A stretch of DNA of 64,000 nt from an uncultured Phycisphaerales bacterium (GTDB lineage Bacteria; Planctomycetota; Phycisphaerae; Sedimentisphaerales; Anaerobacaceae), in NCBI GenBank assembly GCA_963718665.1, contig OY970359.1, positions 928,001 through 992,000 of the forward strand, read 5' to 3'. Below, one piece after another: positions 954-62,742 of this stretch. Positions within the stretch are counted from its first letter, which is position 1, and each line of letters begins with the position of its first letter. Both the position numbers and the translations under genes were made by a program. The notes below the pieces were generated by a model, which was not told the DNA's origin, did no database searches, and worked only from the letters and a program-made list of their open reading frames with translations.

Positions 954-1023
954 GGGTCCCCTGCTGCGGAACCAATGGAGCAGGTTCTCGGGGATCTTCG
1001 CTTCGCTCCGAGGAGAGGATGTT
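954..1023 (+). repeat. structured leader of HNH-AP2 copy A
   Basis: GGGTCCCC...GGGGATCT stem. 954-993 is 33/40 identical to 11499-11538, and the motif is shared with the copy B leader (62459-62531, minus strand). Confidence 0.75.
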
Positions 1024-1623
1024 ATGAAGACGCGCGTGAACATATCGTTTGAGGTTCCCTGTTGGCTCGAATATATCTGTGTGTGTCCTTTACTTATCTA
1101 TCGCCGGCTGCGTTTCGGCTATACCTTCCGCAAAATTCCGCTCACACAAAATCAGGTTACGATTGTTGACCCCAAAGATTATTACTGGCTTGTTAAGTAT
1201 AACTGGTTCGCCTGCCGGTCGTTGCAGACATGGTATGCACATCGCGCCGCCAAAATAAACGGCAAACGTTCCGGAACTTCGATGCACTGCCAGATTATGC
1301 CCTTACCCAAAGGTCTTCTCGTTGACCACGCCAATGGCGACGGCCTCGATAACCGCCGCGCTAACCTCCGTCCCGCCACTCCCGCTGAAAACGCCCACAA
1401 TCGCCGCAAATACTCCACTCCAACGTCTTCTAAATTCAAAGGCGTTCGCTGGCACAAATACAGTAAGCAATGGGCCGTTTCAATTGTTATCAACCACAAA
1501 TCAATCTTTATCGGCTACTTCGACATCGAAATCGAAGCCGCAAAGGCGTATGATGAGGCGGCGAAAAAATACCACGGCGAGTTTGCCCGACTGAATTTCC
1601 CGAAAGGAACTCCTGTGTTTTAA
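1024..1623 (+). CDS. HNH endonuclease with C-terminal AP2 DNA-binding domain (copy A)
   Basis: HNH motif VDHANGDGLDNRRANLR...N; AP2 motif SKFKGVRW...IGYF..E.EAAKAYD.AA..YHGEFARLNFP; RBS GGAGAGG before the ATG at 1024. Confidence 0.9.
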   Translation: MKTRVNISFEVPCWLEYICVCPLLIYRRLRFGYTFRKIPLTQNQVTIVDPKDYYWLVKYNWFACRSLQTWYAHRAAKINGKRSGTSMHCQIMPLPKGLLVDHANGDGLDNRRANLRPATPAENAHNRRKYSTPTSSKFKGVRWHKYSKQWAVSIVINHKSIFIGYFDIEIEAAKAYDEAAKKYHGEFARLNFPKGTPVF

Positions 1624-1750
1624 CTGTCCGCTACACGCTACCCGCTGTCCACTAATTTGGCCGGATTTACACTGGCATTAGGGTTGCGGTTAGGTATAAT
1701 CTTGTCAAAAATGCCGGCCAGGATGGCCGTAGTGAATAATCCTTGAGGAT

Positions 1751-4700
1751 ATGAGCGCAAAGACGTCAAAACTGATTTTGATTGCGATTGCACTGTTTGT
1801 GTCGGCTGGTTCGGCATACGCGATTGACAACACACAAGCAAAGGCCTTCGCCGGACGCGACGTTCAAATCACCTCTGACGAATTAACCAATTATCACGAC
1901 GCCAACGGCACGGATGTTATTGTCATCGATGGAAAGGTCTCGATTGCGGCAGGCGCGGATACGTTCGCGGGCGAAAAAGCCGTCGTATGGTTGAAAAGAA
2001 ACACGGGAAGCAAAAACATCGGCGTCTGGTGCTGCGTATCGGGCGATATTTCCGCGAAAAGAGGCAACGGCACTCGAATAGTCGGGCTTAACTGGGAAAC
2101 AATCGAAAACGGTGGTTCGACAGGCTCACCACAAGGCAAAATGATGGTTATCAGTTTCGAGGCGACGGGTGAAGTATTCGTTACGGCAAAGAAAATTGAG
2201 CATACAGACGTCCGGGGCGGAGAATTTTACAACTATGCATTCACCGTGACCGCCAAAACATATAAAAACTTCGCGGACCAGTGCGCCGCAGTTTCGCCAG
2301 TGATAGTTACATTGGCGACCGAGGCGAATCGCCCTGCTGCCAAACCAAAGGCAGCGACTGCCACGGAAGGTGGGGCAGGATTTATTGACCAGTTGTTTGG
2401 CCCCGCAAAAAAACCGCAGGCGTCTGTTGAGAAAGTCCCGCAGCAGGTAAAAATACGATACCCCGTAAATTTAGCGCCGGCCGGCGAGCAGGAGCCAAAT
2501 ATCGAATGGGGTATCGCAACATCGCCCGCCGCGGACGGCTCATCAAAAACCGAGGAATTAGCGACGGTAATAGGGCGATTTTACCTGTGGCAAAAACAGG
2601 ATGAGCAGGGCCGATTGCTGGAAATGCAGGCGGACAACGCGGTTGTATTTTACGCCGGCGAAAAAACCGGCGAAGGCGAAGAATCGGGCGGGGTAAAGGA
2701 CATCGGGACAAAAGGGGCAATTAAGGCAATTTACGTCCGCGGCGACGTCGTTATGACCGAGGGGTTGCGCACGATACGAGCCGACGAGATGTATTATGAT
2801 TTTGAGAACAAAAGAGGTCTTGCAGTCAACGCGACGATGCGAACATTCGATGTCGAGCGCGGGGTACCTATATATGTCAGGGCTGCCAAAATCAGGCAGG
2901 TGGCAGAGGGCAAATTCACCGCCGACAACGTGGTCGTAACAAGCAGCGAGTTCGCCACCCCCCAGGTTTCGCTTAATGTGTCGAACATCATCGTTACCGA
3001 TACGACAACAATAGACCAGGAGGCGGGTCAGAGCAAAGACAGCAGTTACGACGCGCAGATGTGGGATATCCGGCTGAAAACCGAAGATACAACGGTATTT
3101 TATTGGCCCTATATGCGGAGCAATCTCGAAAGGCCGGACACGCCCCTCAAGAGTTTGCGTATCGGCAACGACAATATCTGGGGCACAACGATAGAGTCGC
3201 GGTGGTTTTTGTCTCGATTGCTTGGTCTGCGCGAGCCGGATGGAACCGATGAAACATTCGATTTGGATTACCTCAGCAAGCGGGGCGTCGGCACGGGAAT
3301 GGACGTGGATTACCAGCAGGATGAACGGCTGGGGAAAATCACGAGCTATTTAATCGACGACAGGGGTGAAGACCGGCTGGGACGGGTTGCCTTCAGGCGA
3401 AACCTCAAACCGCCGGAAGATTTACGCGGAAGATTCAGCTGGGTCAACCGGGAATTTATGCCGTATAACTGGCAGGTTACAACGGGCATCGATTACGAAT
3501 CGGACGAAAACTTCCTCGAAAGTTACCGCAGACACGAGTATAACACCGGCCCCGACCGCGAAACGTATATACACCTCAAAAGAATCGAAGATAACTGGGG
3601 TCTCGCGTTTCTGGTTAAGGGGCGGATTAACAATTTCGCCGACGAATTGGATGAGATGCCGACAGGCGAATATCACCTGACGGGCCAGTCGATTTTCGAC
3701 GACAAGATGACGCTGTACAGCGACACCTATAGCGGGCGATACAGACAAGAAATAGGCAAGAATCACACAACGGAAATGGACCAGGATTATTTCGGGTTTG
3801 GCACGCACAGGACCGAGGTTGATTTGCCGATGTGGACCAATGAAGCGGCGGTAAAAGTGGTGCCTTTCGCCGCGGGAACGGTTGGCTATGACGGACGCAG
3901 CGGGTTTGACAGGTCGCTGGTGGACGGCAGCGACACCGGCAAAGTCGGTGATGAAACCGTTGGAATCGGCGAATTTGGAGTGCGCAGCTCAACCGAGTTC
4001 TGGAAAATATACCCCGACGTCAACAGCCGATTGTGGGACCTAAACGGATTACGACACATCATAACGCCCGGCGTAAGCACTTCGATTTACGGGGCAAGCG
4101 ACACTGAGGTCAAGCAGCACAACGCGGCACATGTAGAGCTGACGCAACTATTGCAGACAAAACGCGGTCCCGATGAACATATTGCGGACTGGATGCGGCT
4201 TAATATGGGCATGACGTGGTTCGAGGATAACGACAAGAGGACGACCGGTTCGGGACCATACAGATATTTATGGAATAATCCTATGACGCCCTTACGGACG
4301 TTAGCTGCGCCGGAAATATTGAACGGCGACCTCGACCATGGACTTAAGAGATTCGAGACATACGGGCCGGTGAGAGATTACTTCGATACCGACTATATGT
4401 GGCAGATAAGCGACACTACGGCATTGTTGAGCAGCGGGTATTATGACATTCACAGCGGGACCGTCGAACAGTTCGATATCGGGTTTTCGCGGACGAGATT
4501 GCCCGACCTGAGCTATTACGTCGGCACCAGGTACCTGCAGGACGTCAACGTGCTGAACAAACACGGCTCCAACGCCTTTGTGTGCGCGGTAAGCTATGTC
4601 CTCGACTCGCGATACACCGTTGTTTTCTCGCAGCAGTATGATTTCCAATACAGGGCAAACGTTGAAAGCGAAATAACGCTCATCAGGCGTTATCACCGGA

Positions 4701-4840: not shown

Positions 4841-4992
4841 CCCTGATTTCGGGACACATAAGCCGACCGGCCAAAAGCGGGCAAGTTCGAGCGAACAAAC
4901 CTCTATCACCTAATGTAAAAACTCCACGCACTAACCACTTTGCCGGCACGGTTATTTGAGGTATAATGGCGGGTGATATGAGGCGACAAAAT

Positions 4993-11465: not shown

Positions 11466-11467
11466 GT

Positions 11468-11601
11468 AATTGCCGATTGCCGATTGTTGATTGAAAGTGG
11501 GTCCCCTGTTGCAAAACCAAAGGAGTAACTTCTCGGGGGCAGGCGGGCAGATGAGGACTAACCCTGCCACTCGCCAAGGGCGAAGATGGCAGGGCTAAAT
11601 A
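11468..11601 (+). mobile_element. candidate non-autonomous (ORF-less) derivative of the HNH-AP2 element
   Basis: A 7-mer array (11468-11495), then a leader copy (11499-11538, 33/40 identical to 954-993), then a trailer hairpin (11559-11601, 40/43 identical to the reverse complement of 61822-61864). Confidence 0.55.
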
Positions 11602-43517: not shown

Positions 43518-43521
43518 AATT

Positions 43522-47252: not shown

Positions 47253-48821
47253 TCAATAAATCCTATGTCCCGTTCTCGCAGTATGTTCGAAATTTATAAA
47301 GAAATATCGCAGGGCGTCAACTGGGTGGTCGTAAACACCGTCTTTTAGGGGTAATTCATCGCCAGCCGGCGTATCGGGATAGTGATAGCAGGTCAGTGCC
47401 TCGATAAGGCGGGCACATTGGGGCGAGACAATAAATCGGCTTTTGCCCGCGCCATCGCGTATCGCCCGGCGGATTGACTCGATGCCCTCGGCGATTCCGC
47501 TTCTGCGATAACGCACGTTGACACCAAGCGAACGCAATTCGCGAACCGCGCTTGTGCCGGTAACGTCGTTGGCTCCCGCACCCGCCGGGTCGCAAAACGT
47601 CGCGATAACTCGCGATTCACCAGTTGGGATTCTGGTCTTCAACTCAGCCGCATGAACATCGATTGTCGCACGAGTTCGCACGTATTCATCAATCACCCGC
47701 ACCACACCTTCGCTATCGACCTGAATCCACAGGCACACAAACGGGTTGGCGAAACCAAAATCCAACGAGCGATACAAAGGCAAATTCGCATCATATCCGA
47801 CGGGCCTGACATGAATTGCGGCATCGAACTGGTCAAAAACAACATTTTCAAGATTAGGTTTCAGGCACAGCATCTCTGCCTCCCAACCCGCCCTGCTGCT
47901 GCGTCGCATCTGCGTAATACAATCGTTTATTTTCAAATAGCCGGCTGCCTGTTTTGCCCTGCCCGCACAATCACCCCACAACGGGCACTGCGAACAGTTT
48001 CTGTCGGTGCATTTTTCGATTGTCTCCCAGACGCACCACTTGAAAAGGGGCGTGTTGGTTTTGGCAGCCGACGAGACGATTTTCTGCATAAGGCCGTATG
48101 GCTTGTGCATTGTGCTGATTGTTTCCATACCGGCGATAATACTGTCCGTGCTTTGCGTGGTAAATTTCGCGGCGTTGAAAACATCGTTATCAAAAAGCTC
48201 GATCTCATCACAGCGTAGTTTTTGAATGTGCTGGCCCCGAACACTCGCCTGCGATTGCGTGAGGACATCGACCGTCGAACCATTGCTGAATCGGCAGCCG
48301 GTTTTGCGAATTGGCTCTAAAAGAAACTTATCGAAGCCGAGTCGCAGAAAATCGGTGAGATATCGATACATCCTCCCCGCCTGTTCTTCTGAACCCGCCA
48401 ATATCCGCACCTGGCAATTGGGCTTGAAGACGCAATCCAAAAGCGTCGCAACGGCCGCAAGGTCGGTCTTGCCTCCGCCCCTATTCGCCCAGACGACGCA
48501 ATCCGCGTTTGTGGGCTTTTGGAATTTTACCGCAGAGCACGCAGAGTTCGCAGAGGTTATTTTTAATTGATTCTCGGCGTTCTCAGCGGCGAGTGTTTTT
48601 TTCTCTTTTATAAAGTCGCAGTTAAAGCTGTGCCAGAGATAATCCAAGGGGCTATTATGCTCTGTGCAAATCTGCATGTCCGGCACGTCAATCCCCAAAA
48701 AGACCTTGATGTAGTTTTTCAGGTCATTTTTTGTCGCGGGCCTTGCTCGTCTTAGCGATTCATACAAGCGGGAAACACTTTGGGTCTGCGCATTTACCGG
48801 CAGAATGATACCGTTAGTCAT
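47253..48821 (-). CDS. phage terminase large-subunit-like protein
   Basis: Walker A ANRGGGKT; Walker B LRCDE; RNase H-like nuclease motifs SLDFG, CDPAG and DHPVDALRY. Confidence 0.85.
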   Translation of the reverse strand: MTNGIILPVNAQTQSVSRLYESLRRARPATKNDLKNYIKVFLGIDVPDMQICTEHNSPLDYLWHSFNCDFIKEKKTLAAENAENQLKITSANSACSAVKFQKPTNADCVVWANRGGGKTDLAAVATLLDCVFKPNCQVRILAGSEEQAGRMYRYLTDFLRLGFDKFLLEPIRKTGCRFSNGSTVDVLTQSQASVRGQHIQKLRCDEIELFDNDVFNAAKFTTQSTDSIIAGMETISTMHKPYGLMQKIVSSAAKTNTPLFKWCVWETIEKCTDRNCSQCPLWGDCAGRAKQAAGYLKINDCITQMRRSSRAGWEAEMLCLKPNLENVVFDQFDAAIHVRPVGYDANLPLYRSLDFGFANPFVCLWIQVDSEGVVRVIDEYVRTRATIDVHAAELKTRIPTGESRVIATFCDPAGAGANDVTGTSAVRELRSLGVNVRYRRSGIAEGIESIRRAIRDGAGKSRFIVSPQCARLIEALTCYHYPDTPAGDELPLKDGVYDHPVDALRYFFINFEHTARTGHRIY

Positions 48822-48888
48822 AATATGCCTCCTAACTCCAGATGGGAAAATTAAAAATTTGTGATTTGAATCTTAACTAAACTTAGCT

Positions 48889-49320
48889 TTATTCCACATC
48901 GATTTTTTGGATGCGGGCAAGGTGTCGTCCGCCGTCGAAGGGGGTATTAAGCCAAAGCTCAACTATTTCCAGCGCTTCCTCAATCGCAATCATCCGCTCG
49001 CCCATCGACAGCATATTGGCGTCATTATGTGCCCTGCTCAGCCGGGCGGAACGCAAATCCCAGCACAAGGCACATCGCACGCCTTTGACCCTGTTGGCGA
49101 CCATCGCTTCGCCGTTGCCAGAACCGCCTAAAATAATTCCGCGGTCGTATTTGCCCGCGGCGACCGCCTTGGCCACAGGCCTCATAATATCGGGGTAATC
49201 GCACGGCTTTTCGGAATCCGTGCCGAAATCGTCAACCGTATGCCCCTTCTCAATCAGGAACTTTTTTATGATTTCCTTGTATTTGAAACCCGCCTGGTCG
49301 GCACCAATCGCTATCTTCAT
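48889..49320 (-). CDS. rpiB: ribose-5-phosphate isomerase B
   Basis: IAIGADQAG, DYPD, GSGNG, SRAHND.N and FDGGRH motifs. Confidence 0.93.
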   Translation of the reverse strand: MKIAIGADQAGFKYKEIIKKFLIEKGHTVDDFGTDSEKPCDYPDIMRPVAKAVAAGKYDRGIILGGSGNGEAMVANRVKGVRCALCWDLRSARLSRAHNDANMLSMGERMIAIEEALEIVELWLNTPFDGGRHLARIQKIDVE

Positions 49321-49444
49321 CAATCGTATCCTTTCCGGTTAATTTATCAGACGGACGATTATAAGGCAAATCGCCCGCTGGCTCAAAAAATTTCTGCCGC
49401 ACCTATTTTGGCCTGTCGAAAACAAAACGTATATTTTAACTGGA

Positions 49445-49637
49445 AGAATGCCCCGCTCTGTTTTGGGAGGGTTCGGCTTGCCTCGCCGAAGGGTGCGGAA
49501 GCCGACAAAAGCTGCAGCCCAAAATGACTGCTGCGGCTTTCCCAGAACAGGGCGGGGTTGATGCTAAAAAGCTTTTCGTAAAGAGAGACGATGCCCTTTT
49601 GGAAGAAAGTGAGGGCGAGATCTTTGGGCCTGCGTCT
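49445..49637 (+). ncRNA. candidate structured ncRNA (three-way junction plus terminator)
   Basis: 18-bp closing stem 49451-49468/49540-49557 with two U-G pairs, two inner helices, then a GAGAGACG/CGTCTCTC stem followed by a T-run. Confidence 0.5.
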
Positions 49638-49885
49638 CTCTTTTTTTCGTTTCGCATCGTCCCCTCTACGCGATTCCCAATTCAGATTTTCTGTAAATCG
49701 TTCGCGATATTTTTTGTTTTTGCCGAACCTCGTCATATACTTTCTATGGAGGAAGCTGATGATGGGACCCGCGGGTCCGCGAGGCATCAGGCCTCAAAGA
49801 AGCTAAAAATAGAAGGCGATAATGTATAAGGGAGACCGCCCGGCAAATTAAATGAGCCATAAAGGAGCGTGTGTCTCCCTTCGGT

Positions 49886-50332
49886 TTATGCGCAATCAGG
49901 CGTCACCTGTTCCTGTTGTTTATCTGTGCTCGCCAAAGCCGATAATAATCTGCTGGCAAGTTCAGGCGGCAAATCTGGTAGCTTCTCAACTTCGGGTTGT
50001 TCGTCGGGGCTGGGTTCCGCTTTTTGCCGGAGATAATTTATAACGTCTAAGCAGGCCTTGCGAGACGTTTCCTGATTCTCTGAGCTGGTCAACTCCACTA
50101 ATTTGACGGCGGCCACATTAGCGAACCTCGCGATTATCAGCTCGCCTCGTCGATGAGCGGATTTGACTCGCCGGTCAAACTCACCCGCAAAATTCTCGTC
50201 GGCCAGCCATTTATCGTAAATGCGTTTGTTAATCCTGTGCTTTTCGAAAATCTGCTGTTCATCAAGCTCGCCCGCGAACAAATCCTCAATCACCGCGAGC
50301 TGCTTTCTTGTAATCCTCTTAGTGTTTGACAT
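49886..50332 (-). CDS. HTH protein resembling a terminase small subunit
   Basis: RKQL..I..L...HTH...IYDKWL.D.NF..E followed by AA.KL.EL....R.AC..I; overlaps the end of parB. Confidence 0.55.
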   Translation of the reverse strand: MSNTKRITRKQLAVIEDLFAGELDEQQIFEKHRINKRIYDKWLADENFAGEFDRRVKSAHRRGELIIARFANVAAVKLVELTSSENQETSRKACLDVINYLRQKAEPSPDEQPEVEKLPDLPPELASRLLSALASTDKQQEQVTPDCA

Positions 50333-50972
50333 TTTCAGCCCCTAAAAATTTAGATGCTATTTCCGTAATCGCCGCGGCTCGACGCTGCGCCTTTGTCATC
50401 TTATTGCTCGATATTCGATTTTCGATGCTCGATAACGCTTCCTCGATAACCCCCTGCTGTTGCTTTGTCACGAAAAACACAAGCGGTATGGCAAACTGCT
50501 CCGCCTGGGCTTCGAGTGGCGCGATAGTCAGTTTCAGGTTTGTCAGCCGTTCAATCTGCTTGGCCGTCTGAGGGAGTAATTTGGCTAATTGGGCTGTCCC
50601 CATCCGCTCAGTAAGCTTTTTCAACAATTCGATTTTCTTCGCCGGCGTATCCGAGCCGGCCAACCGATTCAGCGTCGTCAGCAAAATGGCCGTCTGCTCA
50701 TCGTCCACGTCCCAGACAACGCAATCCGCCTCTTTACGCCCCAGTCGCTCCAGTGCTTTTACGCGGTGATGGCCGTTGATAATCTGAAATTTATCCGCCG
50801 TGGCGGAATGGCCTTTTTCGTCCGGATGAGGCCTGACAACAATCGGCTCATACAGCCCCGTCCGCTCGATATTGCGAACCAGCTTGCGAAACGTCGCATC
50901 ACTCATCACATTAGGATTATCGGGATGTGCAGTAAGCTTTGACAACGCTATCGATTTAATCGGTTCAGACAT
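50319..50972 (-). CDS. ParB/Srx N-terminal domain protein
   Basis: HPDNPN.M...KL.RNI..G..EPIVVR...IINGHHR. Confidence 0.9.
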   Translation of the reverse strand: MSEPIKSIALSKLTAHPDNPNVMSDATFRKLVRNIERTGLYEPIVVRPHPDEKGHSATADKFQIINGHHRVKALERLGRKEADCVVWDVDDEQTAILLTTLNRLAGSDTPAKKIELLKKLTERMGTAQLAKLLPQTAKQIERLTNLKLTIAPLEAQAEQFAIPLVFFVTKQQQGVIEEALSSIENRISSNKMTKAQRRAAAITEIASKFLGAENVKH

Positions 50973-51070
50973 TTTTTATTTCTCCTAATCAATGCATATT
51001 AATGAGTTAGCGAACGAGTAAAAAACAATGGATGCACGGGGAAGGGGCTGTCGCACTGCTCGTGAAGTCG

Positions 51071-53407
51071 CTACCACAGATTACTCTGTGAGACACCGTA
51101 TAATTTACAAATTTTATTATCTATCGAGCTTATCGTATTGGCACGATCGGCTCCTCTGGGGCTTTCATTTAACAACATTACAGTAAGATTTACCACCTCA
51201 TCAAATAACCGCTTATCCTGTTCATTTTGCGGGACAGGCATAGGAAATTCACGGAGGACGCTAACTCGGTAACAATACCAACCAGAACCTAATGTCGGCA
51301 TTCGTCGTTGAGCCCACATCCGGAATACTTTGCTGTTAAGAACAGCAAGCAAAAAATAAACGTTTAAAGCCTTTTCATCCGGGCATATAAGAATGACGCT
51401 ATTGTTACAGAAGAGCTGTCGACATCGGTCCATGGCAAAGCTGCCGCCGGAACTAACTACACTCCCAACAATTTTTGGGCTTTTAATGATGCCAGAGACG
51501 TCTTCGCTTCTAAATGCATACCACGGTTGTTTCCTTTTCTGTTTTCTATAGATAAGATAAGGTTCGCAACGTTTTAAGTATTTATATGTAAGAGGAAATT
51601 CCGTCCGTAACATATCTTCAGTGTACAGCTTTCCGGTCTCATCATAAGGAAATATGCACAGCGTTTCAGGTTCCGGTAAGGTATATTCTTTGATATGGCG
51701 TCCACGTAATATCGGCCTCAAAATCGAATGTTCAAATACAAATCCATCACCCAAGAAACGACTTTCGGCTAATACGGTTTTAGAAGTCAAGCATTCGGCG
51801 TTTTTTAACAGAAACACATTATCCGCCTCTGTAGCTGTTCCAAAGCAGATGCGGACAGGCAATTTGCCGAGAGGTAAACCCGTTGACTCGATTTTATACA
51901 ATAGGTTCACCTCGCTTTCAGAATCCAAAATCCAATTTTCTGAAGCACATGCTGTGGCAGGCAGATTACGAATTTGTAATGATGTGTCGTCGCCGAATTT
52001 ATCAATTCTGCTTAGTTTCCTGCGCAGACTTCCTTTCGCTTTAATAAATACATATTTTGTGGTATTTTTCTCAGCAGTTTTTTGAAGCATAATTACCGCA
52101 ATCTGAACCGTAGCGTTTTGATATAGCCTGCTATCTTCAAATTCCACAATTTCACCAACAGTACACTCCTCGGCAATCAATTGACGAAGCACACGACCGC
52201 TTTTGGATCGCAAAAATGTATTAGAAATGCTCATACTTAAGTAGCCCTGATTTGCTAATTGCTCGATCGATTTTTCAATGAAAAGCATGTATAGATCAAA
52301 CTGATCGGTTTTTGCTACTCTAAATCTGCGCTTATAATTTTCGACCTTTTCGCGGTCTGACTTATAAAGTTCCTGGACTCGGACAAAAGGCGGCCCACCA
52401 ATAATCACTTGGAATGCTTCGTTTTTCAAAGATTGCCCCGCAAGGAAATCCTCGCATCTAATATTTTCCTCGAGAGTCGGTATCCTCAGATTTTGAATAT
52501 CATCCCTGCTTACGCCGTTGCTAATATAAAAATCCCATATTGTCAGCAAAAGTAATCTGCGTGTTTGCTGAATTGCCCATTCATCAATGTCTGTGCCATA
52601 AATCATAGACTCCAAAAGATTGAGTGTTTTCTGCGGAGAGAGACGTTGCGGTCTTTTATTGTCATTATAATTGCTTTTGAGCCATTTCAGTAAGAAACGA
52701 ACTGTTGCGATTAAAAATGCTCCACAGCCACAGGATGGATCGAGAATTCGCAGATGTTCAACCTGCTCAAGAGCCAATTTGCGAAATAATTTCTCAAAAG
52801 TATGAAACACAATGTAATCTACCAGGGGTGCAGGTGTGTAATATACACCTCTGGCATGACGGTCTGAGTGTTTTTTGTGAATTTTTTTATCTGCAATCGG
52901 ACTGCTTAAGCATAACTGATAAAAATCACTCATAATAGTGACCGGCATTCGACATCCATATATGACTTCGGCCGTTTCCGATATTTTAGCAAGAGATGAC
53001 AAATCAACATTTTTTTGTGGCGCTACCCCTGAATCACGTAAATGCTCCGGATTAAAAACCGCTTTGAGCAGTTTGCATGATACGCGATTGTAAACTGCCT
53101 CACAAAGATTGAACGCTGTTGGTTTATTAGCAATTTTTAGAATTTCCTCAAGAGTTGGAATCGCCATATAATCTAACTGTTTAACAAAGCCAATAAGCAT
53201 AATTGTATGGATACATTCGTCAACCGACCGTTGGGCATTTTCCCTATCTGCCTCCTTATTAAAATCACCGGCCCATACCCACAGCAAATACTCTCGCCAT
53301 TTTTGAAGATAATCGAGATGACGTGCAACAATTCTATACGGAGGAGAAATCTGCTGTTCAAGTAAAGGTGGAAGAATAGCTCCAGATTCTAATAAATAGT
53401 CAGACAC
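51071..53407 (-). CDS. Eco57I/TaqI-like N6-adenine methyltransferase with TRD; atypical motif IV GPPF
   Basis: RGVYYTP; motif I LDPSCGCGAF; IIGGPPFV in place of NPPY; DLY..FIE; TaqI_C-like AVLNSK. Confidence 0.85.
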   Translation of the reverse strand: MSDYLLESGAILPPLLEQQISPPYRIVARHLDYLQKWREYLLWVWAGDFNKEADRENAQRSVDECIHTIMLIGFVKQLDYMAIPTLEEILKIANKPTAFNLCEAVYNRVSCKLLKAVFNPEHLRDSGVAPQKNVDLSSLAKISETAEVIYGCRMPVTIMSDFYQLCLSSPIADKKIHKKHSDRHARGVYYTPAPLVDYIVFHTFEKLFRKLALEQVEHLRILDPSCGCGAFLIATVRFLLKWLKSNYNDNKRPQRLSPQKTLNLLESMIYGTDIDEWAIQQTRRLLLLTIWDFYISNGVSRDDIQNLRIPTLEENIRCEDFLAGQSLKNEAFQVIIGGPPFVRVQELYKSDREKVENYKRRFRVAKTDQFDLYMLFIEKSIEQLANQGYLSMSISNTFLRSKSGRVLRQLIAEECTVGEIVEFEDSRLYQNATVQIAVIMLQKTAEKNTTKYVFIKAKGSLRRKLSRIDKFGDDTSLQIRNLPATACASENWILDSESEVNLLYKIESTGLPLGKLPVRICFGTATEADNVFLLKNAECLTSKTVLAESRFLGDGFVFEHSILRPILRGRHIKEYTLPEPETLCIFPYDETGKLYTEDMLRTEFPLTYKYLKRCEPYLIYRKQKRKQPWYAFRSEDVSGIIKSPKIVGSVVSSGGSFAMDRCRQLFCNNSVILICPDEKALNVYFLLAVLNSKVFRMWAQRRMPTLGSGWYCYRVSVLREFPMPVPQNEQDKRLFDEVVNLTVMLLNESPRGADRANTISSIDNKICKLYGVSQSNLW

Positions 53408-53501
53408 AATTTAATCTTTTTAAATAAGCATTAAAGTTGATGGCGTGAATTAATCCCTGTGTTTCCGGCCAATTAAAAATATCGCAGGCAATTGTTAATC
53501 A

Positions 53502-54671
53502 TCAGAGCACGCAGTTACAACGACCGATAGAGTCCTTCATATCCAAAGCATCGAAAACGTCGGTCTCTTCCAAACACAGACCGATTTGCAGTTTGGGCCG
53601 AAGTTTTTTTATTTTGTCAATGAGGTATCGATACACTTCGATTCTTAGTTTTACAGGGAAGCGCATTCTACCATCTTTCGATTTGCCCTTTTCGAGCATT
53701 TTTGAAATAGCGTTATTCTTCCCTAATTTTCTCTCGGTAAGCTGCAACGCTCCGAAGTAGCTGCAAATTTGCCCCAGCGTTATGCGTTCAAGCGGGACTG
53801 ATACTAAAAATTTCTCCAAAAAGCGTGTGTATATATTTTGCCACCCTTCTACGGGGATAATGGGCATTATAACGGCGCGTAAGGGATAGCCCGCATTTGC
53901 ACACTTCCGCATCGCAGCAATTCTTTCATCGGGCAAAGGCACGTTCGACTCGAACAAGCTGGAAATCTCACCGGGATTTAAGCTCCACGAAAGAATGGTG
54001 TGGCCGTTGTGGTCAAGGTCAAGCAAATTGTCCACATTGGCGCTTTTTGTCAATAGAGTCAGTTTGGCGTTTTTCTGGTGAGCAAAAAAAGGAATAATTA
54101 AGCGTGAATAGCCGGTAAGCGGGTCAATCGCCAAACCGTCCTGGAGTTTCCCCAAGTAGAAGGCCGCGGGTACGGTCAGTTTTGAAGCAATGCCTGCGAT
54201 TCGGTCAAGGATTTCAGCGATATTTACAAATATCTTTACTGTCGGTGAGAATTTTACGCCGGGCGTTCCTGCCAGATAACAATACCGGCAATCATAAGGG
54301 CAAAAGCTGTATGGCGAAAAATGCCAGTAATTGGGGCAGCCATTACCATCCTCGTCGCTGAACCTTAGTGCGCTTTTATGCACGCCGAATACAAGGGTTT
54401 TTTTGCCTTTATAGTGCGTTTCCAGGATATCCGGCCCGCCAATATCGAGGCGATTATGAGAGGTGCCGAATCTTTCGAGCACCCGGGCCTGAGGATATAC
54501 CTTACAAATTGCCTGAACAAAATCACGCTGTTGGACGGTCTGACAGCTGCCTTTAGTCAATACAATTGCATCAGGGGTAAAATAAGAAGCCCGCTTTGGT
54601 TGATAATCCCAACACGAATTCTTTGCTGAAAAAAGGTCAATCATAATTGAATTTTCGCGCTCTAAACTCAT
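53502..54671 (-). CDS. spore photoproduct lyase-like radical SAM protein
   Basis: CPYDCRYC cluster motif; LLTKS, SWSLNP, LCLE and terminal CNC. Confidence 0.85.
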   Translation of the reverse strand: MSLERENSIMIDLFSAKNSCWDYQPKRASYFTPDAIVLTKGSCQTVQQRDFVQAICKVYPQARVLERFGTSHNRLDIGGPDILETHYKGKKTLVFGVHKSALRFSDEDGNGCPNYWHFSPYSFCPYDCRYCYLAGTPGVKFSPTVKIFVNIAEILDRIAGIASKLTVPAAFYLGKLQDGLAIDPLTGYSRLIIPFFAHQKNAKLTLLTKSANVDNLLDLDHNGHTILSWSLNPGEISSLFESNVPLPDERIAAMRKCANAGYPLRAVIMPIIPVEGWQNIYTRFLEKFLVSVPLERITLGQICSYFGALQLTERKLGKNNAISKMLEKGKSKDGRMRFPVKLRIEVYRYLIDKIKKLRPKLQIGLCLEETDVFDALDMKDSIGRCNCVL

Positions 54672-54692
54672 ATTGTCAAGACAAAGACATAC

Positions 54693-55521
54693 TCAGCCTG
54701 CATCCCAAATCCTCAATTCAACATTAGTATTTCGCCACATATAATACACGGGCCTGTCGGTTAGTTTATTGAGGACAAATCTTGTGCGTTCGATGCCGGG
54801 CTGCATAAGGCGTCTTTGGCCGTAACTTTGAAGGAATCGCGTCATCTCGCCATCAATAAATTGTGCCGCCCCGCATTTTATTTCACCGCCGAGATCGCAA
54901 AGACCGCGGAGATTATTTTTAACTATTTTTTTCTCTGCGTTCTCGGCGTGCTCTGCGGTAAAAATTGAATCGAGCTTCTGCTGGACAAGTTCCGCGTCAA
55001 TCAAATCCTGCTCATCTACGCCGACCGCACTAAACGCCTCAATCAATCGAACACACGATGGGGATATTGGCGCATCATATCGCGTCAATCCCGCCTTTTC
55101 AAAAAACGGGTTCGCCCTTCCCATCACCGCCAGCGCCTCAACGAAGGGGACATCCATAATCGGCATCGTCTCTTTGACTAAGCGAACCGCAAGCCCCAGC
55201 GAGCGAAACCTCGGCTCGATAATCACCCTGCTGATTGTGCGGATATTTTTGTTGATGAGCTTGAGACGCGTGCCCTTATCCAGCCCCGCGAAAATCCCGC
55301 CTGTCGCGATATTTCGCATCTGCGCCAGCCGTCGGCATCGAATAAACAATCACCCCCACGGTTTCGAGCTTCGTCGCCGTACGGAATTTACCCTTCAACG
55401 CAAAAATCGCCGCGTATGGCCCCATATTCGGCTCGCGGTAATGATAATGCGAAAGCGATTCGTAATCCGCCCTCGTCCCACGCACAATTTCGAGATTTCT
55501 CGCCACTGTGCACATTTCCAT
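54693..55521 (-). pseudogene. GNAT acetyltransferase (COG2401/Mom-like), split by a frameshift near 55320
   Basis: The N-terminal part (L..YHY...VGVIVY.MP; ORF 55276-55521) joins the C-terminal part (QMRN...ISRVIIEPRFRSLGLA..LV...EALAVM..NPFFEKAG; ORF 54693-55349). Confidence 0.8.
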
Positions 55522-55537
55522 TTTTGCTTTTTCCCTT

Positions 55538-56185
55538 TTACTTTTTACTTTTATATGTGACTTCCGCTTCTCCTGAGAAGTTTTTCACCACCAGCACATC
55601 CGGCTGCAAATCCGCCAGTATGTCCTCGTGAGCCGACGCGAGGAAAAACGTAACGCCGTTGTGTTTCGCGAACCTACGAACGTTATATGCGATTACGCCC
55701 GCGGTGATGCGGTCCAGGTTGCTGCAAAACTCGTCTGCGAATACGAACTTCCTGCCCGACGCCAGCGCGCAGGCCAGGCGAAAACGATATTTCTGCCCTT
55801 CGCTTAAATTCGCCGGCGCATTCAGCATACAAAACACGTCGCTCAGCCCCGCATAGCTCAGCATCGATAATCCGTCAATCGTCCCCGTTCCACCCACGCA
55901 GTCAATCGCTGATTTATCCGCAGGCAAAGCTATCTGCTCGATTACGATTTTATCATCATCCGCTACCGCCGCCTGCATTTCCCGCAGCAGCACGCTTTTG
56001 CCCGCCCCCGAAGGCCCGGTTATGTAAACAATGTCCCCATCGTTTACCTCGACTGTGCATGCGTGCGTCGTGCGCTGACCTTTGAGCCGGTCGATTCCCA
56101 CGCCGAACATCCGCATCACAGTCGTAACGCGCTCGCTTTTTTGCGGATTAACCTCGAATTGTTTCGCCACAGAAAATTTACGCAT
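55538..56185 (-). CDS. soluble ABC-type ATPase (COG2401-like)
   Basis: Walker A GPSGAGKS; signature LSEGQKYRFRLA; DEFCSNLDR; no permease gene nearby. Confidence 0.88.
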   Translation of the reverse strand: MRKFSVAKQFEVNPQKSERVTTVMRMFGVGIDRLKGQRTTHACTVEVNDGDIVYITGPSGAGKSVLLREMQAAVADDDKIVIEQIALPADKSAIDCVGGTGTIDGLSMLSYAGLSDVFCMLNAPANLSEGQKYRFRLACALASGRKFVFADEFCSNLDRITAGVIAYNVRRFAKHNGVTFFLASAHEDILADLQPDVLVVKNFSGEAEVTYKSKK

Positions 56186-56188
56186 CGC

Positions 56189-56635
56189 TCAATCCTCCTT
56201 TACCTCGTCCCCGCGCTTATTCGGCACACTTGTCAGCCGCTGAATTTGTCGCATCGTCTTTCTCACCTGGTAATACGTAATCTCGTGCCTGTCGGCTATC
56301 TCCTTCATAGGCAATCCATCGACAAAATAATCTCTCGCCATTTCAATCTGCTCATTGCTGAATTTGTCCCGGTTGTGCAGGCAGGTAATGTATTGCCCGT
56401 CAAGAAGCCGGCGAACCAGCTTGTGAATCCTTCTGGCAACGTTCACCTCATTGACGCCCGCCAGCCGCGCCATTTGGCTCAATGTCCCCGACCCGTTCAG
56501 ATACATTTGCATCAAAGCCCCATCCCTGCCCGTCAGCAGTCCCGCCCTGCATCGCAGAAGGTCAATTCTGTCCGTAGCTTCTGTCTCTTCTCTGCTGATG
56601 GGATTAACTTTTTGAAACGCCCTGCTCCTGGCCAT
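56189..56635 (-). CDS. double-HTH / sigma-region-4-like DNA-binding protein
   Basis: LSQMARLAGV...VARRI and MKEIADRHEITYYQVRK helix-turn-helix segments. Confidence 0.7.
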   Translation of the reverse strand: MARSRAFQKVNPISREETEATDRIDLLRCRAGLLTGRDGALMQMYLNGSGTLSQMARLAGVNEVNVARRIHKLVRRLLDGQYITCLHNRDKFSNEQIEMARDYFVDGLPMKEIADRHEITYYQVRKTMRQIQRLTSVPNKRGDEVKED

Positions 56636-57136
56636 ATCACTTCTCCTTTCTCCTCACAATCCGAAATCAAAATTTATCCGCCTTCGGCGTAATTTACTTC
56701 ATCATTGGATATTTGATATTGGACATTGGACATTCAATTCCATCTTCTCACTTCTAACTTCTGCCTTACTTAACTTTGCATTTCGCATTTTGATTTTTGC
56801 TATGCTTATCCGCACTCCGTCCCCGTCAGGCGCCTTTCATCTTCTAACTTCTAACTTCTGCCTATTAGTTGTTATTTATCAACCTAACAACAACCATAAT
56901 TTTATATCTATCGTCTTAAATGTCAAATTGTTTTTAGTAAAAAAACGAAATATTTTTATTGTTCACTATTTATATAACAAGTGAGTTGCCAAAAATCCCC
57001 GTTTTTAGCCCAATAACGAGGATTTTCGGGGATTTACTTCAAGAAGGGGGCCAAGCAATTTTTTTTGTTCTTTGGCTTAATTTTCTTGTGAGTTTTAAAG
57101 AATGAACCCAGCGAGGGATTCTTTTTCAACCCAACC

Positions 57137-58634: not shown

Positions 58635-59204
58635 CTAAAAAAGTAATTTTTTGAGCAGTTCCATCGGCATACCCATAACGTTGGTCATACTGCCCTCGAT
58701 ATGGTCAACAAAGGGGTCGTTGTCGCTGATGGAATACGCGCCGGCTTTGTCACGCCAGATGCCACTTTTGATATGCTTGGCAATCTGGGCATCCATCAGT
58801 TTTTTCGGATAAACAACCGTCGTTTCGGCTTCGACGATTTTCAGATTGCCCGATTTACAGACAAGGGCAAGGGCCGTGATAACCTTGTGGGGTTTGCTGA
58901 ACAGCGTTCGCGTAATCTCTTCGGCGTGCTTCGCATCACGGGGTTTGCCTATGATTTGTCCCGCGAAATCGACAACAGTATCCGCGCCGATGACAATTGA
59001 ATCAGGATGCTTTCGAGCGACGTCGTCTGCCTTGGCAAAAGCTAATTGTTTGGCGTATTCGACGGAAGTGATATTTTCAGTTGAGAAATTTGACTCGTCA
59101 ATCTGTGAGACGACAACGGTGAATTTGTAGCCCGCTTCGGCAAGGAGCTGTTTACGCCGAGGCGACGCCGATGCGAGAATCAGGGGTAAATGTTCAATGT
59201 TCAA
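58635..59204 (-). CDS. maf: Maf family nucleotide pyrophosphatase
   Basis: LILASASPRR, IGADT, DKAGAY and NVMGMP motifs. Confidence 0.93.
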   Translation of the reverse strand: MNIEHLPLILASASPRRKQLLAEAGYKFTVVVSQIDESNFSTENITSVEYAKQLAFAKADDVARKHPDSIVIGADTVVDFAGQIIGKPRDAKHAEEITRTLFSKPHKVITALALVCKSGNLKIVEAETTVVYPKKLMDAQIAKHIKSGIWRDKAGAYSISDNDPFVDHIEGSMTNVMGMPMELLKKLLF

Positions 59205-59229
59205 TATCCAGTATCCAATAATGAAGTGA

Positions 59230-60300
59230 TTATCTTAACCGCACCGAGTATGTTATCTTTTTGCAGAAGATAAGGTATTCCTTTTCGATTTGGTCATAAT
59301 CGCTGCCGATGTAATGCTCGAACAGCACCTTTCCGATTTCGCTGTTCCGTTCGATGGTTATCGGTATATTTCTGTCGGCGGCGATTTTTATATCCTCCGG
59401 GGATAAGGGCCACTGGCCATTGAAGCCGTCGAATAGCATATTTTGATATTTGCCTAAGCGTTTGCCGTAATCATCTTCACGAAGAAAACGGACAAGGGCG
59501 TACGCCTGGCTGTAAAAGGCAGCGACGGCCTCATCGTTTTCCACAACGACCTCGCCAGGGTTTAGCGATATGAGGGCCTTGAGAGGTATAACTTTATCTC
59601 TAAGAAAGGTCTGTTTGAGTGAGCCGAGGCGGTAGGCGTTGCGGTCGGGCGTAAAGGTGTAAAAACCCCTGTCGTATTCGGTTATTTCGAACTGCATCGC
59701 GATACCTTCATCGAGCCAGCTTGGCAGGCGGTATTTGAAAAGCCGCGAGTTGAACTGGTGCCAGCCCTCGTGGCCGAGAACCGAGAAGGTGCGCTCCCGG
59801 CCGATGTTATACGCCACGCACGACCCGTTTAAATAATAAGCCCCGGCTTTGATTTTGAGATACATCTGTGCCGCTGTGCCGGTGAAATCTGTTGTGAAGA
59901 CCTCCCACTGCTGACGATTAGCGAAGAGGTAAATGGTTAATGGGGCCGAGGTCTCGATTGGTCTGGGGAGCTGGCTTTCATAGCCGCGATAGGCGGACTC
60001 GACGAAGCCGGGGACCTGCGAGAGCATCAGCGGGTCAAGGAGGGTTGTGTAAATTTCATAATGAGCAGTATTGAGCTTGAGGCCCGTGCCGAACTTGCCT
60101 TCCCATAAGTCGATTGTCTTAAGAGTGGGGAGCTGTTTATTTTTCAGGTAGGCAACCATACCCGTGGGGGTATTTATGTCGCCGGCTAACGATACGCCGG
60201 CAAAACAAAATAAACCACAGATTGCCCAGATTGCCCCCGCCAATAGGCGAGGTCTCGCCAAAGGCATACAGATTGCCCGGATTACGCTGATTTTTTTCAT
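59230..60300 (-). CDS. secreted zincin-like protein (DUF1570-like)
   Basis: HEGWHQ...P.WLDEGIA; FYSQAYALV. Confidence 0.75.
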   Translation of the reverse strand: MKKISVIRAICMPLARPRLLAGAIWAICGLFCFAGVSLAGDINTPTGMVAYLKNKQLPTLKTIDLWEGKFGTGLKLNTAHYEIYTTLLDPLMLSQVPGFVESAYRGYESQLPRPIETSAPLTIYLFANRQQWEVFTTDFTGTAAQMYLKIKAGAYYLNGSCVAYNIGRERTFSVLGHEGWHQFNSRLFKYRLPSWLDEGIAMQFEITEYDRGFYTFTPDRNAYRLGSLKQTFLRDKVIPLKALISLNPGEVVVENDEAVAAFYSQAYALVRFLREDDYGKRLGKYQNMLFDGFNGQWPLSPEDIKIAADRNIPITIERNSEIGKVLFEHYIGSDYDQIEKEYLIFCKKITYSVRLR

Positions 60301-60353
60301 ATCATATATACGTCTGACTGGTGTGCAAAACTCAACCTAATTCTGTGATTATA

Positions 60354-60914
60354 TCATATATCTTTGAAAGGTGCGCCGAAAACCTCGGCGGAGAAGAGGA
60401 ACACATCGGTTTTACTGTCCCTCCATGCGTCTTCAGGCAGGCCCGCCTTATGGGAACAGCAATAGGACAGAAATTCTTCTTTTGACCACCCCGTTTCCGT
60501 CGCCACCTGTGGAAGAAAACATCCCGAGAGATGGCCGCGTTTTATGTAAATGCCGTCAATGCCGAGGCGAAGGGAAAGCGGGTTGGCGGTTTTTTTCAGC
60601 GCGGAAAGGACCGAGATTTCGATATCGAGGTTGGGCAGGTCGTCGGGGGTAATCTGATTGTCGAAAAAGCGCGGGTCGCCTGTAGCGGATGCCTTTGCCA
60701 TTTCGACGACCATATTGACTAACGGCTTGTCGGCGACGAACTGGCCTATGCAGCCGCGAAGCTCATCGCCGGTTTTAAGAGTAACGAAACAGCCAAGGTG
60801 CGATGCGAGGTCAGGGTCATCGGCTTCAACTTTCGGAAGGCGTTTGCCCGTGATAACGGCTTCGACGGTATCGCGTGCGACTTTCAACAACGCGTGTTTT
60901 TGTTCTTCATTCAT
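60354..60914 (-). CDS. AMMECR1-family protein (AmmeMemoRadiSam system protein A)
   Basis: GCFVTL...LRGCIG, DPRF, FLPQVA and KAGL motifs. Confidence 0.92.
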   Translation of the reverse strand: MNEEQKHALLKVARDTVEAVITGKRLPKVEADDPDLASHLGCFVTLKTGDELRGCIGQFVADKPLVNMVVEMAKASATGDPRFFDNQITPDDLPNLDIEISVLSALKKTANPLSLRLGIDGIYIKRGHLSGCFLPQVATETGWSKEEFLSYCCSHKAGLPEDAWRDSKTDVFLFSAEVFGAPFKDI

Positions 60915-61024
60915 AGTTAGTCGTTAGTCGATAGCCATTAGTCGTTAGTCATTGGTAGCAAGGCATTTGATAAGAGCCATTGTCATTTTGCCGATTTGTT
61001 CAGTTTCGTCTATCATAACATCAA

Positions 61025-61681
61025 TTATTCAGACGCGGACATCTTCTGTTTAATAAAGGCAATCGCACCCGGCATCAACGAAATGACAATGATGGCCATA
61101 ATGACAATTGTGAAATGGCTCTTCACAACGGGAATATTGCCGAAGAAATAGCCGCCGAGAACGAATGTGCCCGTCCAGGCAATCGTCCCGCCGATACTGT
61201 AAGCGAGGAACCGCCAGTAAGTCATTCTGCCTATCCCCGCGACAAAAGGAACGAATGTGCGGAAGATGGGCATAAAGCGTGCGATTACGACGGTCTTTCC
61301 GCCGTGCTTTTCGTAGAACCGATGGGTTTCATCGAGATGCTTTTTGCTGAGGATTCGCACGTTTTCCTTGTGGAAAATCTTCGGGCCTACCAGATACCCT
61401 ATCCAGTAATTGGTATTGTCGCCGCAGACCGCCGCCGCGAACAAAAGCGGCCACATAAAACGTATTTCGAGGACGCTGTCTTGCATCGCCGCAAGAGACC
61501 CCGCTGCGAAAAGCAGCGAATCCCCCGGCAAAAATGGCGTTACGACAAGCCCCGTCTCGCAGAAGATGACAATAAAAAGAATCAGATAAACCCATGCGTG
61601 ATACTGCGAGACGACCGTCTCGAGGGTCTTATCGAGGTGAAGAAACAATTCGATTAAATTAATAGTCGCTAACATTTCCAT
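61025..61681 (-). CDS. dedA: DedA family membrane protein
   Basis: FCETGL..TPFLPGDSLLF; ARF.PI.RTF.PFVAG. Confidence 0.93.
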   Translation of the reverse strand: MEMLATINLIELFLHLDKTLETVVSQYHAWVYLILFIVIFCETGLVVTPFLPGDSLLFAAGSLAAMQDSVLEIRFMWPLLFAAAVCGDNTNYWIGYLVGPKIFHKENVRILSKKHLDETHRFYEKHGGKTVVIARFMPIFRTFVPFVAGIGRMTYWRFLAYSIGGTIAWTGTFVLGGYFFGNIPVVKSHFTIVIMAIIVISLMPGAIAFIKQKMSASE

Positions 61682-61737
61682 CCCCTAACAATATGAAAAA
61701 CCGGCCCTGTTGTCAACCTCGCCCCGTGAGATAACAG

Positions 61738-61864
61738 GTTAGCCCCCAGGTCTGCCTGGGGGCTTGTTTAGCCCGGCAACTTTATTGCCGGGTCATAAAA
61801 ATTGTAGAACTTCCTCATCCGTATTTAGCCCCGCCATCTCCGCCCTTGGCGAGTGGCGGGGTTA
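61738..61864. repeat. cluster of three REP-like hairpins, each starting TTTAGCCC
   Basis: AGCCCCCAGG/CCTGGGGGCT, CCCGGCAA/TTGCCGGG and CCCCGCCA/TGGCGGGG; the last is also present at 11559-11601. Confidence 0.75.
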
Positions 61865-61870
61865 CTTTTG

Positions 61871-62458
61871 TCATTTCTGCGAATGCGGAAAGTTTAATCG
61901 TGCGAATTGGCCATGATATTTCCTCGCAGCCGCATCGAATGCCTTTGCAGCGTCTTCTTCATTATCGAAATAGCCCAGCCATTTTTTCCCCTCTTTATGT
62001 TTGATTTGTGCTGCCCATTTGTTCATCTTCTTCGCGAAATGCACTCCGACAAATCGAGACGTAGTGTTTCTTCTCTTTGGCCTGTTACAGTTGTTCTGTG
62101 AATGTGTCGCCGGCCGCAAATTGTCCCTGCGATTATCCAGCCCGTTACAATTTATGTGGTCGATAAACAGGCCCGCTGGAGGATTGCAAATAAACCTGTG
62201 CATCGAGGTTAGTTTCGAATGACTGCCCGTCTCTTTGAAAAAACGCACGGCGTAAATACTGTCGAAGTCCTCTTTGATAATCCAGTCCAGCTCGTTTATC
62301 CGGTAAAAGTCCTTTTGGTCAACAATAGCGTATTTGTCTTCGCCCACATGAATCCTGCGAAACTCATACCCGTATTTGCGCCTTCGATACAACCTCGCCG
62401 GCCACGCGCAGATTTTATCTACCCAGTTCGGAACTTTAATTGTCATGCGAATCTTCAT
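61871..62458 (-). CDS. HNH endonuclease with C-terminal AP2 domain (copy B)
   Basis: IDHINCNGLDNRRDNLR...N; SRFVGV...LGYF...AAKAFD.AARKYHGQFARLNFP; RBS AGGAG before the ATG at 62458. Confidence 0.9.
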   Translation of the reverse strand: MKIRMTIKVPNWVDKICAWPARLYRRRKYGYEFRRIHVGEDKYAIVDQKDFYRINELDWIIKEDFDSIYAVRFFKETGSHSKLTSMHRFICNPPAGLFIDHINCNGLDNRRDNLRPATHSQNNCNRPKRRNTTSRFVGVHFAKKMNKWAAQIKHKEGKKWLGYFDNEEDAAKAFDAAARKYHGQFARLNFPHSQK

Positions 62459-62742
62459 AATTCTTCTCCTCTCGTAGCTTTGCGAAGACCCCGGACTACG
62501 ATCCGGGGCCCAGAACCGCAGTCGGGGATCCACAAAAACTAAACACTAAAAACTGAAAACTCAAAACTATAGAGGAAGTCGAAGAATCGACTTCCTCTAT
62601 CCTATGGCGCAATCTTCGCGCTTTTGACGAAAACTAAGGGATTTCCTGATGGGGCCAAAAACGATAAGTCCTTATGAAATAAGGAGTAAAAAAATTTTAA
62701 GATTTTTGAATCTAAGGGTTTTCGACCTGCGCGAAAATGGAT

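Follow-up and report, generated by a model that had tools for sequence, protein, structure and literature searches.

Endonuclease genes of the HNH-AP2 type are known in multiple copies from phages (PMC2248197 and PMC10448857, both in excerpt). Gene transfer agents (GTAs) are described as selfless in the available part of a review, which treats the choice of packaging starts and the cause of packaging peaks as unsettled and notes that packaging could proceed both ways from a break (PMC11841831). Some GTAs have their loci scattered but under common regulation (bioRxiv 2024.11.20.624540, in excerpt), and the Caulobacter GTA promoter, according to the section available, depends on IHF together with an activator element located between -123 and -113 (PMC11150451). 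Here, a window of 64,000 nucleotides (the whole stretch analysed, positions 928001-992000 of the single contig of a 2.61 Mb uncultured Phycisphaerales genome, G000) was compared with related genomes. The window carries two HNH-AP2 genes, copies A and B, which belong to a multicopy chromosomal family, of which about three quarters of the members have an upstream block, called AB, in common with the capsid operon; the block is found nowhere else in the genome.

A preliminary description of the window had presented the two genes as a free-standing mobile unit with structured ends and empty derivatives resembling miniature inverted-repeat transposable elements (MITEs). The family that this description picked out is real and unusual, but the description was wrong about the ends and overlooked both the real 5' hallmark, the block common to the capsid operon, and a terminase module inside the window. 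Its authors did not recognise the element as a described one, and likewise no description was found in the literature searched: with supplements and most subscription journals outside the search, neither the nuclease family, nor a GTA in Phycisphaerae, nor nucleases behind a common GTA promoter turned up in any report. A term search in the available text of a Phycisphaerae genomics paper (PMC11266412) gave no mention of phage, capsid or HNH, and the accessible part of the GTA review (PMC11841831) contains no GTA-linked nuclease arrays. The two genes and their upstream regions are as follows.

716..953, forward strand: type C region upstream of copy A, a sigma70-like putative promoter (-35 at 768, -10 at 790) with short hairpins in tandem behind it
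1024..1623, forward strand: HNH-AP2 copy A, 199 aa, with an N-terminal helix (13-31), a beta domain, HNH and AP2
61871..62458, reverse strand: HNH-AP2 copy B, 195 aa, HNH_3 plus AP2
62590..62970, reverse strand: AB block of copy B, a homologue of the sequence ahead of the capsid operon

The 5' mark of the nuclease genes is the AB block of 250-400 bp. An AB profile built solely from loci outside G000 and then run on this genome gave 21 matches, 20 of them directly 5' of an HNH-AP2 gene on the same strand and one, with the same layout, before the portal gene; the sole portal-scaffold-capsid operon of G000 is the sole non-nuclease gene set behind such a block. With a 24-nt core matrix, 16 nuclease loci and the portal locus outranked every other site in the genome. 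The remaining seven of the 27 G000 copies have a type C block, one with an insertion sequence (IS) in between. In the set of 155 copies from nine genomes that served for the counts of AB cores, leaders, trailers and sites, the core lies 86-561 nt upstream of the start in 118, a looser type C (sigma70-type) pattern fits 17 and neither fits 20; copies without the AB block have a sigma70-like promoter at the corresponding position. The block of copy B contains two GCGCAxG-type boxes, A-tracts, a palindrome (62745-62763), a -10-like core (62593-62606) and an inverted middle motif (62665-62687) that is labelled IHF-like from the IHF consensus. Box spacing in the two-box layout is 106-126 bp, close to whole helical turns. 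No convincing site for the capsid-promoter matrix was found ahead of the terminase genes. In the type C leader (801-953), the tandem short hairpins downstream of the sigma70-like promoter bear GCGCAAG-like boxes; transcription might be attenuated here, with read-through controlled by the same regulator.

The AB block stands before the portal gene in all 12 genomes of the genus that have upstream sequence (the genus comparison set comprised 23 relatives). The two-box layout also precedes the portal in the nuclease-poor genomes G027, G028 and G034, which marks the layout as the capsid operon's own, captured by the nucleases. In G026, a member of another family, 9/10 nuclease rows (8/9 distinct loci) match the portal upstream region of their own genome best, with a mean own score of 187, whereas other genomes reach no more than 78 and null scores peak at 35; 10 of the 13 strong rows in G022 (18 rows in total) and 4/4 in G012 also match their own portal upstream region. 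Six further genomes from five genera and two families yielded 30 loci among the AB-type upstream matches listed, 17 of which reach the score of at least 130 that was counted as strong, all 17 being best to their own portal upstream region; seven other loci show sigma70-like promoters by eye. Among close members of the genus, the match is stronger to the clade than to the individual genome. Judged by these upstream comparisons, the AB block follows each lineage's own capsid upstream region, a pattern of apparent concerted evolution. In G006, an insert of about 1.8 kb (L461:7970-9737) lies within the block before the portal, and the same junction occurs before a nuclease copy of G019 (L104).

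The capsid operon lies elsewhere in the genome, and the packaging genes lie inside the window.

G000 1660149-1669818 (L281:15150-L282:4819): capsid operon with SPP1-type portal, scaffold, SU10 capsid and neck/beta-helix genes, among housekeeping neighbours
47253..48821, reverse strand: terminase large subunit (TerL), phrog_2, PF17289
49886..50332, reverse strand: terminase small subunit (TerS), phrog_2538, with a three-helix N-terminus that resembles a helix-turn-helix (HTH) in the model
50319..50972, reverse strand: ParB-like gene of the packaging module
54693..56185, reverse strand: gene for a 218-aa protein and ATPase of the ABC type, both in the packaging module and with synteny kept in other families
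56189..56926, reverse strand: sigma70-region-4/HTH protein, whose gene opens the packaging module behind a separate sigma70-like promoter at 56894-56926

Taken together, the capsid operon and the packaging module look like the genomic signature of a domesticated, single-copy, inherited GTA-like system. The capsid gene is present at one locus per genome in 121/151 genomes of the order and 72/121 of the class. Over the 41 genomes in which TerL, portal and capsid were all counted, portal and capsid occur in 27 and TerL in 40, second TerL matches being pieces of one gene; TerL was found by the Terminase_6C profile and missed by Terminase_6N and Terminase_3. The best cultured-phage match of the SU10-type capsid is 31%. 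The packaging module (TerL, TerS, ParB, ATPase and the sigma70-region-4/HTH protein, which is a candidate activator) is syntenic in other families. Three helices form the TerS N-terminus with pLDDT above 90, and its best Foldseek match, to a phBC6A51 phage protein, is weak (E 0.14). No replication or integration genes were seen among the genes scanned at the capsid and terminase clusters, the rest of the genome being unscreened. Downstream of the capsid gene, neck and beta-helix matches alone were obtained and most genes have no family. In G007, G019 and G020 the operon is replaced at its site by 6-9 kb of other DNA in contiguous contigs, and such relatives are possibly non-producer lineages. 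The operon itself has the layout of a nuclease cassette, namely variable DNA, block, heptamers, hairpin and ribosome-binding site (RBS). In the packaging module (47253-56635, reverse strand), the host gene rpiB separates TerS from TerL. G000 also has an Eco57I-type methylase and a radical-SAM gene inserted there; G017 and G020 lack this insertion.

The nuclease family is much larger than the two full copies first proposed. G000 holds 27 HNH-AP2 paralogues, on which tblastn and a nucleotide profile agree; two are frameshifted, and the copies are dispersed along the chromosome with gaps of 14-345 kb. Copies A and B, which share 46% identity, both have HNH_3 and AP2 domains and the common N-terminal extension that had been pointed out, and the median identity among the 25 paralogues aligned whole is 52%. 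D101, H102, N114 and N123, the catalytic residues, are invariant across 75 aligned rows, and 33 independent pairs give a dN/dS of 0.17, with 0.10 for the HNH segment, so that the nucleases are, by these measures, under purifying selection with catalytic residues intact. Within the AP2 strands, positions 142, 144, 146, 151, 153, 155, 160 and 162 are among the most variable and presumably correspond to the base-contacting positions of AtERF1; positive selection on these putative DNA-contact codons was sought within allele pairs and none was seen (dN/dS 0.26). The nuclease model (pLDDT 91.6) matches AP2 domains and, weakly, I-HmuI in fold. A predicted complex of TerL with the HNH-AP2 protein scored 0.01. 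The N-terminal helix is a weak candidate for a membrane span, 16% of copies exceeding 1.6 on the Kyte-Doolittle scale, and mosaic nuclease genes are limited to one clear pair. Between 3 and 34 HNH-AP2 matches are present in 21/23 relatives of the genus, in which copy number ranges from 0 to more than 30, and the family occurs in 65 of the 151 order genomes surveyed, with copy counts per genome taken from the best 21 scored. The best 80 GTDB loci all belong to Planctomycetota, many to Sedimentisphaerales or Phycisphaerae and others to Pirellulales or Planctomycetaceae. Truncated remnants and empty sites exist. In one subfamily (L431, L437, L443 and L449 of G107, and L448 of G042) a cysteine-rich N-terminus replaces the helix and the capsid block is mostly missing. 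At 1176484-1176516 and 2487136-2487168 of G000, 33-nt duplicates of the nuclease 3' end directly follow full copies, which suggests replacement, starting on the 5' side, of an older allele by a newer one.

The nucleases recur at a limited number of host sites, where alleles are replaced, inverted or absent and where defence cargo lies 5' of the copies. Of 155 copies, 146 could be mapped through their flanks to about 41 host sites, 31 of them used in at least two genomes, and to 90 allele families defined at 78% identity; the site count is approximate, as rearrangements merge some sites. Pairs at least 80% identical lie at the same site in 73/85 cases versus a background of 3.6%, and 178/307 same-site pairs are less than 60% identical. 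The comparison of the copy A and dedA junctions that had been proposed revealed filled, alternative and empty alleles among relatives, and the mobile unit stands to this extent: it is multicopy, chromosomal and free-standing, with presence and absence at orthologous sites, but structured ends are not supported. The allele of copy A is also present at its site in G006 and G019, there behind a different upstream block; unrelated alleles occupy the site in G020, G008, G015, G002 and G014, G016 has a remnant, and G007, G017, G012 and G013 are empty. The dedA site of copy B is occupied by a different allele in three relatives and by none in other close ones, and a hisI-like site holds two alleles, each seen in both orientations. 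Contigs from four sequencing runs of one study, one run being possibly the source, span 44.5-64 kb of the window with no joint excising copy B, which makes an assembly artefact unlikely; in the same four sets, depth is raised solely over the repeated block.

Low-GC DNA flanks 50% of 113 copies on the 5' side, versus 12% on the 3' side and 9% genome-wide. In a cargo scan of 38/56 open reading frames (ORFs) from 20 chosen flanks (18 upstream and 2 downstream) of the 27 copies, PADLOC matches were obtained in 10 of the 20 flanks, including five restriction-modification loci. Both copies in the window have such cargo on their 5' side.

1..490, reverse strand: tcmP cargo beside copy A, PADLOC PDC-M41A, extending beyond the window
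63120..64000, forward strand: type II restriction enzyme cargo beside copy B, whose methylase follows outside the window

Insertion just ahead of a host promoter holds at both window sites, but with the next gene tandem in 15 and convergent in 11 of the 26 copies listed, by crude gene calls, it is not general. The two flanks of copies L159 (G017), L078 (G006) and L126 (G020) map far apart in G000, so that cassettes are also rearrangement breakpoints. The dedA promoter spacer (61701-61680 and L057-L065) varies much more than dedA itself, whose protein is 90-97% identical, and is possibly a target or a repair scar. In G020 (L060), a short gene that appears GIY-YIG-like by eye lies between the nuclease and the dedA promoter.

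The hairpins and period-7 (heptamer) runs on which the proposed ends had been based are located as follows.

954..1023, forward strand: leader of copy A, an exchangeable hairpin module resembling repetitive extragenic palindromes (REPs), plus RBS
1624..1683, forward strand: right junction of copy A, a heptamer run; similarity to empty alleles restarts at a -35-like box (1673) of a 1029-aa gene
11468..11601, forward strand: the supposed MITE, a heptamer run and two generic hairpins between convergent rluA and AKR
61701..61864, reverse strand: three generic hairpins 3' of copy B, including the trailer at 61822-61864; right junction at the dedA -35 box (61716)
62459..62568, reverse strand: leader of copy B, a hairpin, RBS and heptamer run forming a variable module

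The details of these repeats were largely read correctly. A near copy of leader A lies at 11499-11538 (33/40 matches), and 20 nt later a near copy of the copy B trailer lies at 11559-11601 (40/43 matches), with a compensatory C-G/T-A stem pair between the two trailers; the trailer itself begins 6 nt past the stop codon, not 7. They do not behave as element ends. A leader precedes 24/155 copies (within 130 nt of the start) and a trailer follows 4/155 (within 150 nt 3'), and in G000 the order leader then trailer, on which the empty derivative was founded, occurs once, at 11.5 kb, as does the reverse order. The suggested count of both repeats showed them to be generic; they do not define the nucleases, although they are enriched beside them: 6 of 15 leader matches in G000 lie ahead of an HNH-AP2 gene, 2 of 20 trailer matches immediately 3' of one on the same strand, and 10/44 members of the wider trailer hairpin family near nucleases, a fraction that makes up 1.8% of the genome. 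The heptamer runs exist as described but mark no element, with 339 genome-wide and 37 near an HNH-AP2 gene; 19/27 G000 copies have one nearby. At the rluA-AKR junction, spacer content varies among relatives, and the same leader and trailer pair was found solely in G019; G006 has the leader plus a different hairpin, G007, G017 and G020 have other hairpins, and the heptamers vary too. Orthologues of copy A at 96-97% identity bear different leaders and a different upstream block. Such swapping among orthologues, with no Rfam match above the gathering score in four loci, speaks against mobilisation or guidance by the hairpins, and, in the same four loci and with leaders that are not conserved, no conserved structured RNA of the IscB/HEARO type (RNA-guided nuclease) was seen beside the ORF, a covariance model not having been built. 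No target-site duplication was evident by eye at the two junctions inspected (copies A and B). A MITE or IS with structured ends was rejected for want of a common end pair on most copies, of near-identical copies and of a duplication. The hairpins and heptamers are exchangeable intergenic repeats that gather at the same hotspots, passengers rather than ends. The 1029-aa gene, previously labelled lptD, gave no family match in domain scans.

The explanation we favour, for which the chances seem about evenly balanced, is that homing-type HNH-AP2 nucleases took over the capsid-operon promoter of a GTA-like system, so that cells which produce particles also make the nucleases, and that these favour their own transfer. 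The promoter role of the block, the making of particles, the cutting and the biased packaging are all deduced from genomic patterns. The AB block would be the activator- and IHF-dependent promoter of the capsid operon, and the nucleases would be made mainly in doomed, particle-producing cells, in which case many active nucleases would cost little. Each nuclease may cut or nick a locus-specific target near its own gene; the resulting DNA ends would be starts for headful packaging by the terminase, and the cassette and its cargo would be over-packaged. Recombination in recipients, and among repeated blocks within a genome, would then exchange alleles between sites, and sigma70-type copies could provide ordinary homing in recipients. 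The broader proposal, of an undescribed class-wide Phycisphaerae GTA that is parasitised in Sedimentisphaerales by one-gene cassettes (capsid promoter or packaging site plus site-specific nuclease), is held a little less firmly, at slightly under an even chance. Several results weigh against the favoured explanation. Near-identical HNH-AP2 paralogues are absent from G000 (maximum 68% identity). No co-conversion of the downstream host flank was detected (27 versus 64 pairs, first 200 bp, p 0.85, between species about 88% identical), so that recent between-species homing is not seen. Neither a holin nor an endolysin nor clear tail machinery was identified among the scanned genes of the capsid region. 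In 11/23 relatives of the genus, many of them nuclease-rich, no portal was found, and the capsid-less G019 and G020 keep 22 and 17 nuclease copies. Finally, the HTH-like, putatively DNA-binding N-terminus of TerS is unlike that of known GTAs, which would allow the block to be a packaging site rather than a promoter alone.

This last point leads to an unlikely competitor, in which the AB block is or contains a pac-like packaging start, the cassette is a minimal satellite (pac plus nuclease) at which the domesticated terminase is made to begin, so that it is transferred with its neighbours in the manner of lateral transduction, and the nuclease helps cutting or integration. The confident three-helix N-terminus in the TerS model and the one-sided cargo fit this proposal, as do the A-tracts, IHF-like motif and repeated boxes, features that phage packaging regions also show. 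An HNH protein of HK97 aids terminase cleavage (PMC10448857, in excerpt). However, the block occupies the promoter position ahead of the portal RBS, a sigma70-like promoter substitutes for it in other copies, and the terminase regions examined contain no block match except at nuclease copies. The nucleases might instead be part of a GTA regulon kept by the host, their many specificities fragmenting the producer chromosome to make packaging broad, or else killing producers or infecting phage, with turnover as a by-product of repeat recombination; strong purifying selection, dispersal of copies over the chromosome (gaps of 14-345 kb), the common upstream block and defence cargo nearby would suit it, yet it ranks behind the pac-like start. 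Nucleases were found in 7/50, 1/15 and 0/7 genomes of the groups f7, f2 and f8, compared with 44/50, 11/15 and 5/7 for the capsid, and a copy number from 0 to more than 30 within one genus, with remnants and empty sites, is hard to reconcile with host maintenance.

Improbable too, and placed just after the regulon, is that these are ordinary free-standing homing endonucleases at defence-island hotspots, whose block spreads by gene conversion and whose link to capsid genes, which would then be no DNA-transfer agent, is a regulatory convenience, a rarely active promoter silencing a toxic gene. Nuclease-rich genomes without a capsid operon are expected on this account, phage HNH-AP2 families behave in this way (PMC2248197 and PMC10448857, in excerpt), and lysis genes were not found among the scanned capsid-region genes; but ordinary homing needs expression in cells with two alleles, which a silent promoter would block, and TerL, TerS, portal and capsid are all retained across the order. 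The original proposal of a unit with structured RNA or DNA ends and MITE-like empties, mobilised or guided by hairpins, is very improbable. The enrichment of hairpins near copies and the compensatory change agree with it; the low leader and trailer counts (24 and 4 of 155), the exchange of leaders between orthologues, a pair that occurs once in that order, the lack of an Rfam family and of a target duplication evident at two junctions do not. Particles of Poriferisphaera ZRK32 were considered as support for particle production and set aside, being reported, in the excerpt available, to contain an extrachromosomal phage genome (PMC10945688).

If the favoured explanation is true, each genome would have about 20 defined packaging starts, each marked by a nuclease, and selfish genes would have a route to exploit a GTA, which would also explain the recurrent defence-island hotspots. 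The finding would also point to a GTA-like system in a class for which no report of one was found in the literature searched. In the broader proposal, the cassettes would set up packaging starts for themselves, spread through the population together with neighbouring defence islands and jointly determine which chromosome parts get transferred. The system also supplies a small nuclease scaffold in at least 90 natural allele families, its predicted DNA-contact residues being variable.

Compared with known systems, the nucleases resemble those of Xp10, Xop411 and OP1 and the IPA-HNH of ICP1-like phages in combining HNH_3 and AP2 and in occurring as several diverged intergenic copies per genome, and, like phage HNH-AP2 endonucleases, they lie at boundaries of exchanged DNA and leave degenerate remnants (PMC2248197 and PMC10448857, in excerpt). 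They differ from the phage enzymes in residing on a bacterial chromosome at up to about 30 copies per genome, in an extra N-terminal helix outside the best phage alignments (which begin at residue 20-56) and in an upstream block that is the same in kind as that of the capsid operon. Filled and empty alleles at a fixed site are shared with homing endonucleases. Short GC-rich intergenic hairpins and 7-mer runs that vary between relatives are as in REP or heptamer repeats and MITEs, but here the repeats are passengers and not ends, and no HUH transposase is tied to them. As in lateral transduction or phage satellites, selfish DNA would exploit the capsid and terminase of another; unlike satellites, the cassettes have one gene each and no integrase, replicon or att sites, and the helper is a domesticated host locus. 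The capsid and packaging genes, considered from genes alone, recall RcGTA, CcGTA and BaGTA in being single-copy, lineage-wide and split between loci among housekeeping genes, and, as in GTAs, no replication or integrase gene was found next to them. The SPP1-type portal and SU10-type capsid are unlike those of known GTAs, and TerS keeps an HTH-like domain, whereas known GTA TerS proteins, in the part of the review available, have no DNA-binding domain (PMC11841831). A sigma70-region-4/Q-like regulator candidate is present here as in the excerpted accounts of CcGTA and BaGTA, and the upstream box and IHF-like site of the AB block form a close architectural parallel to the CcGTA promoter as given in the available section (PMC11150451).

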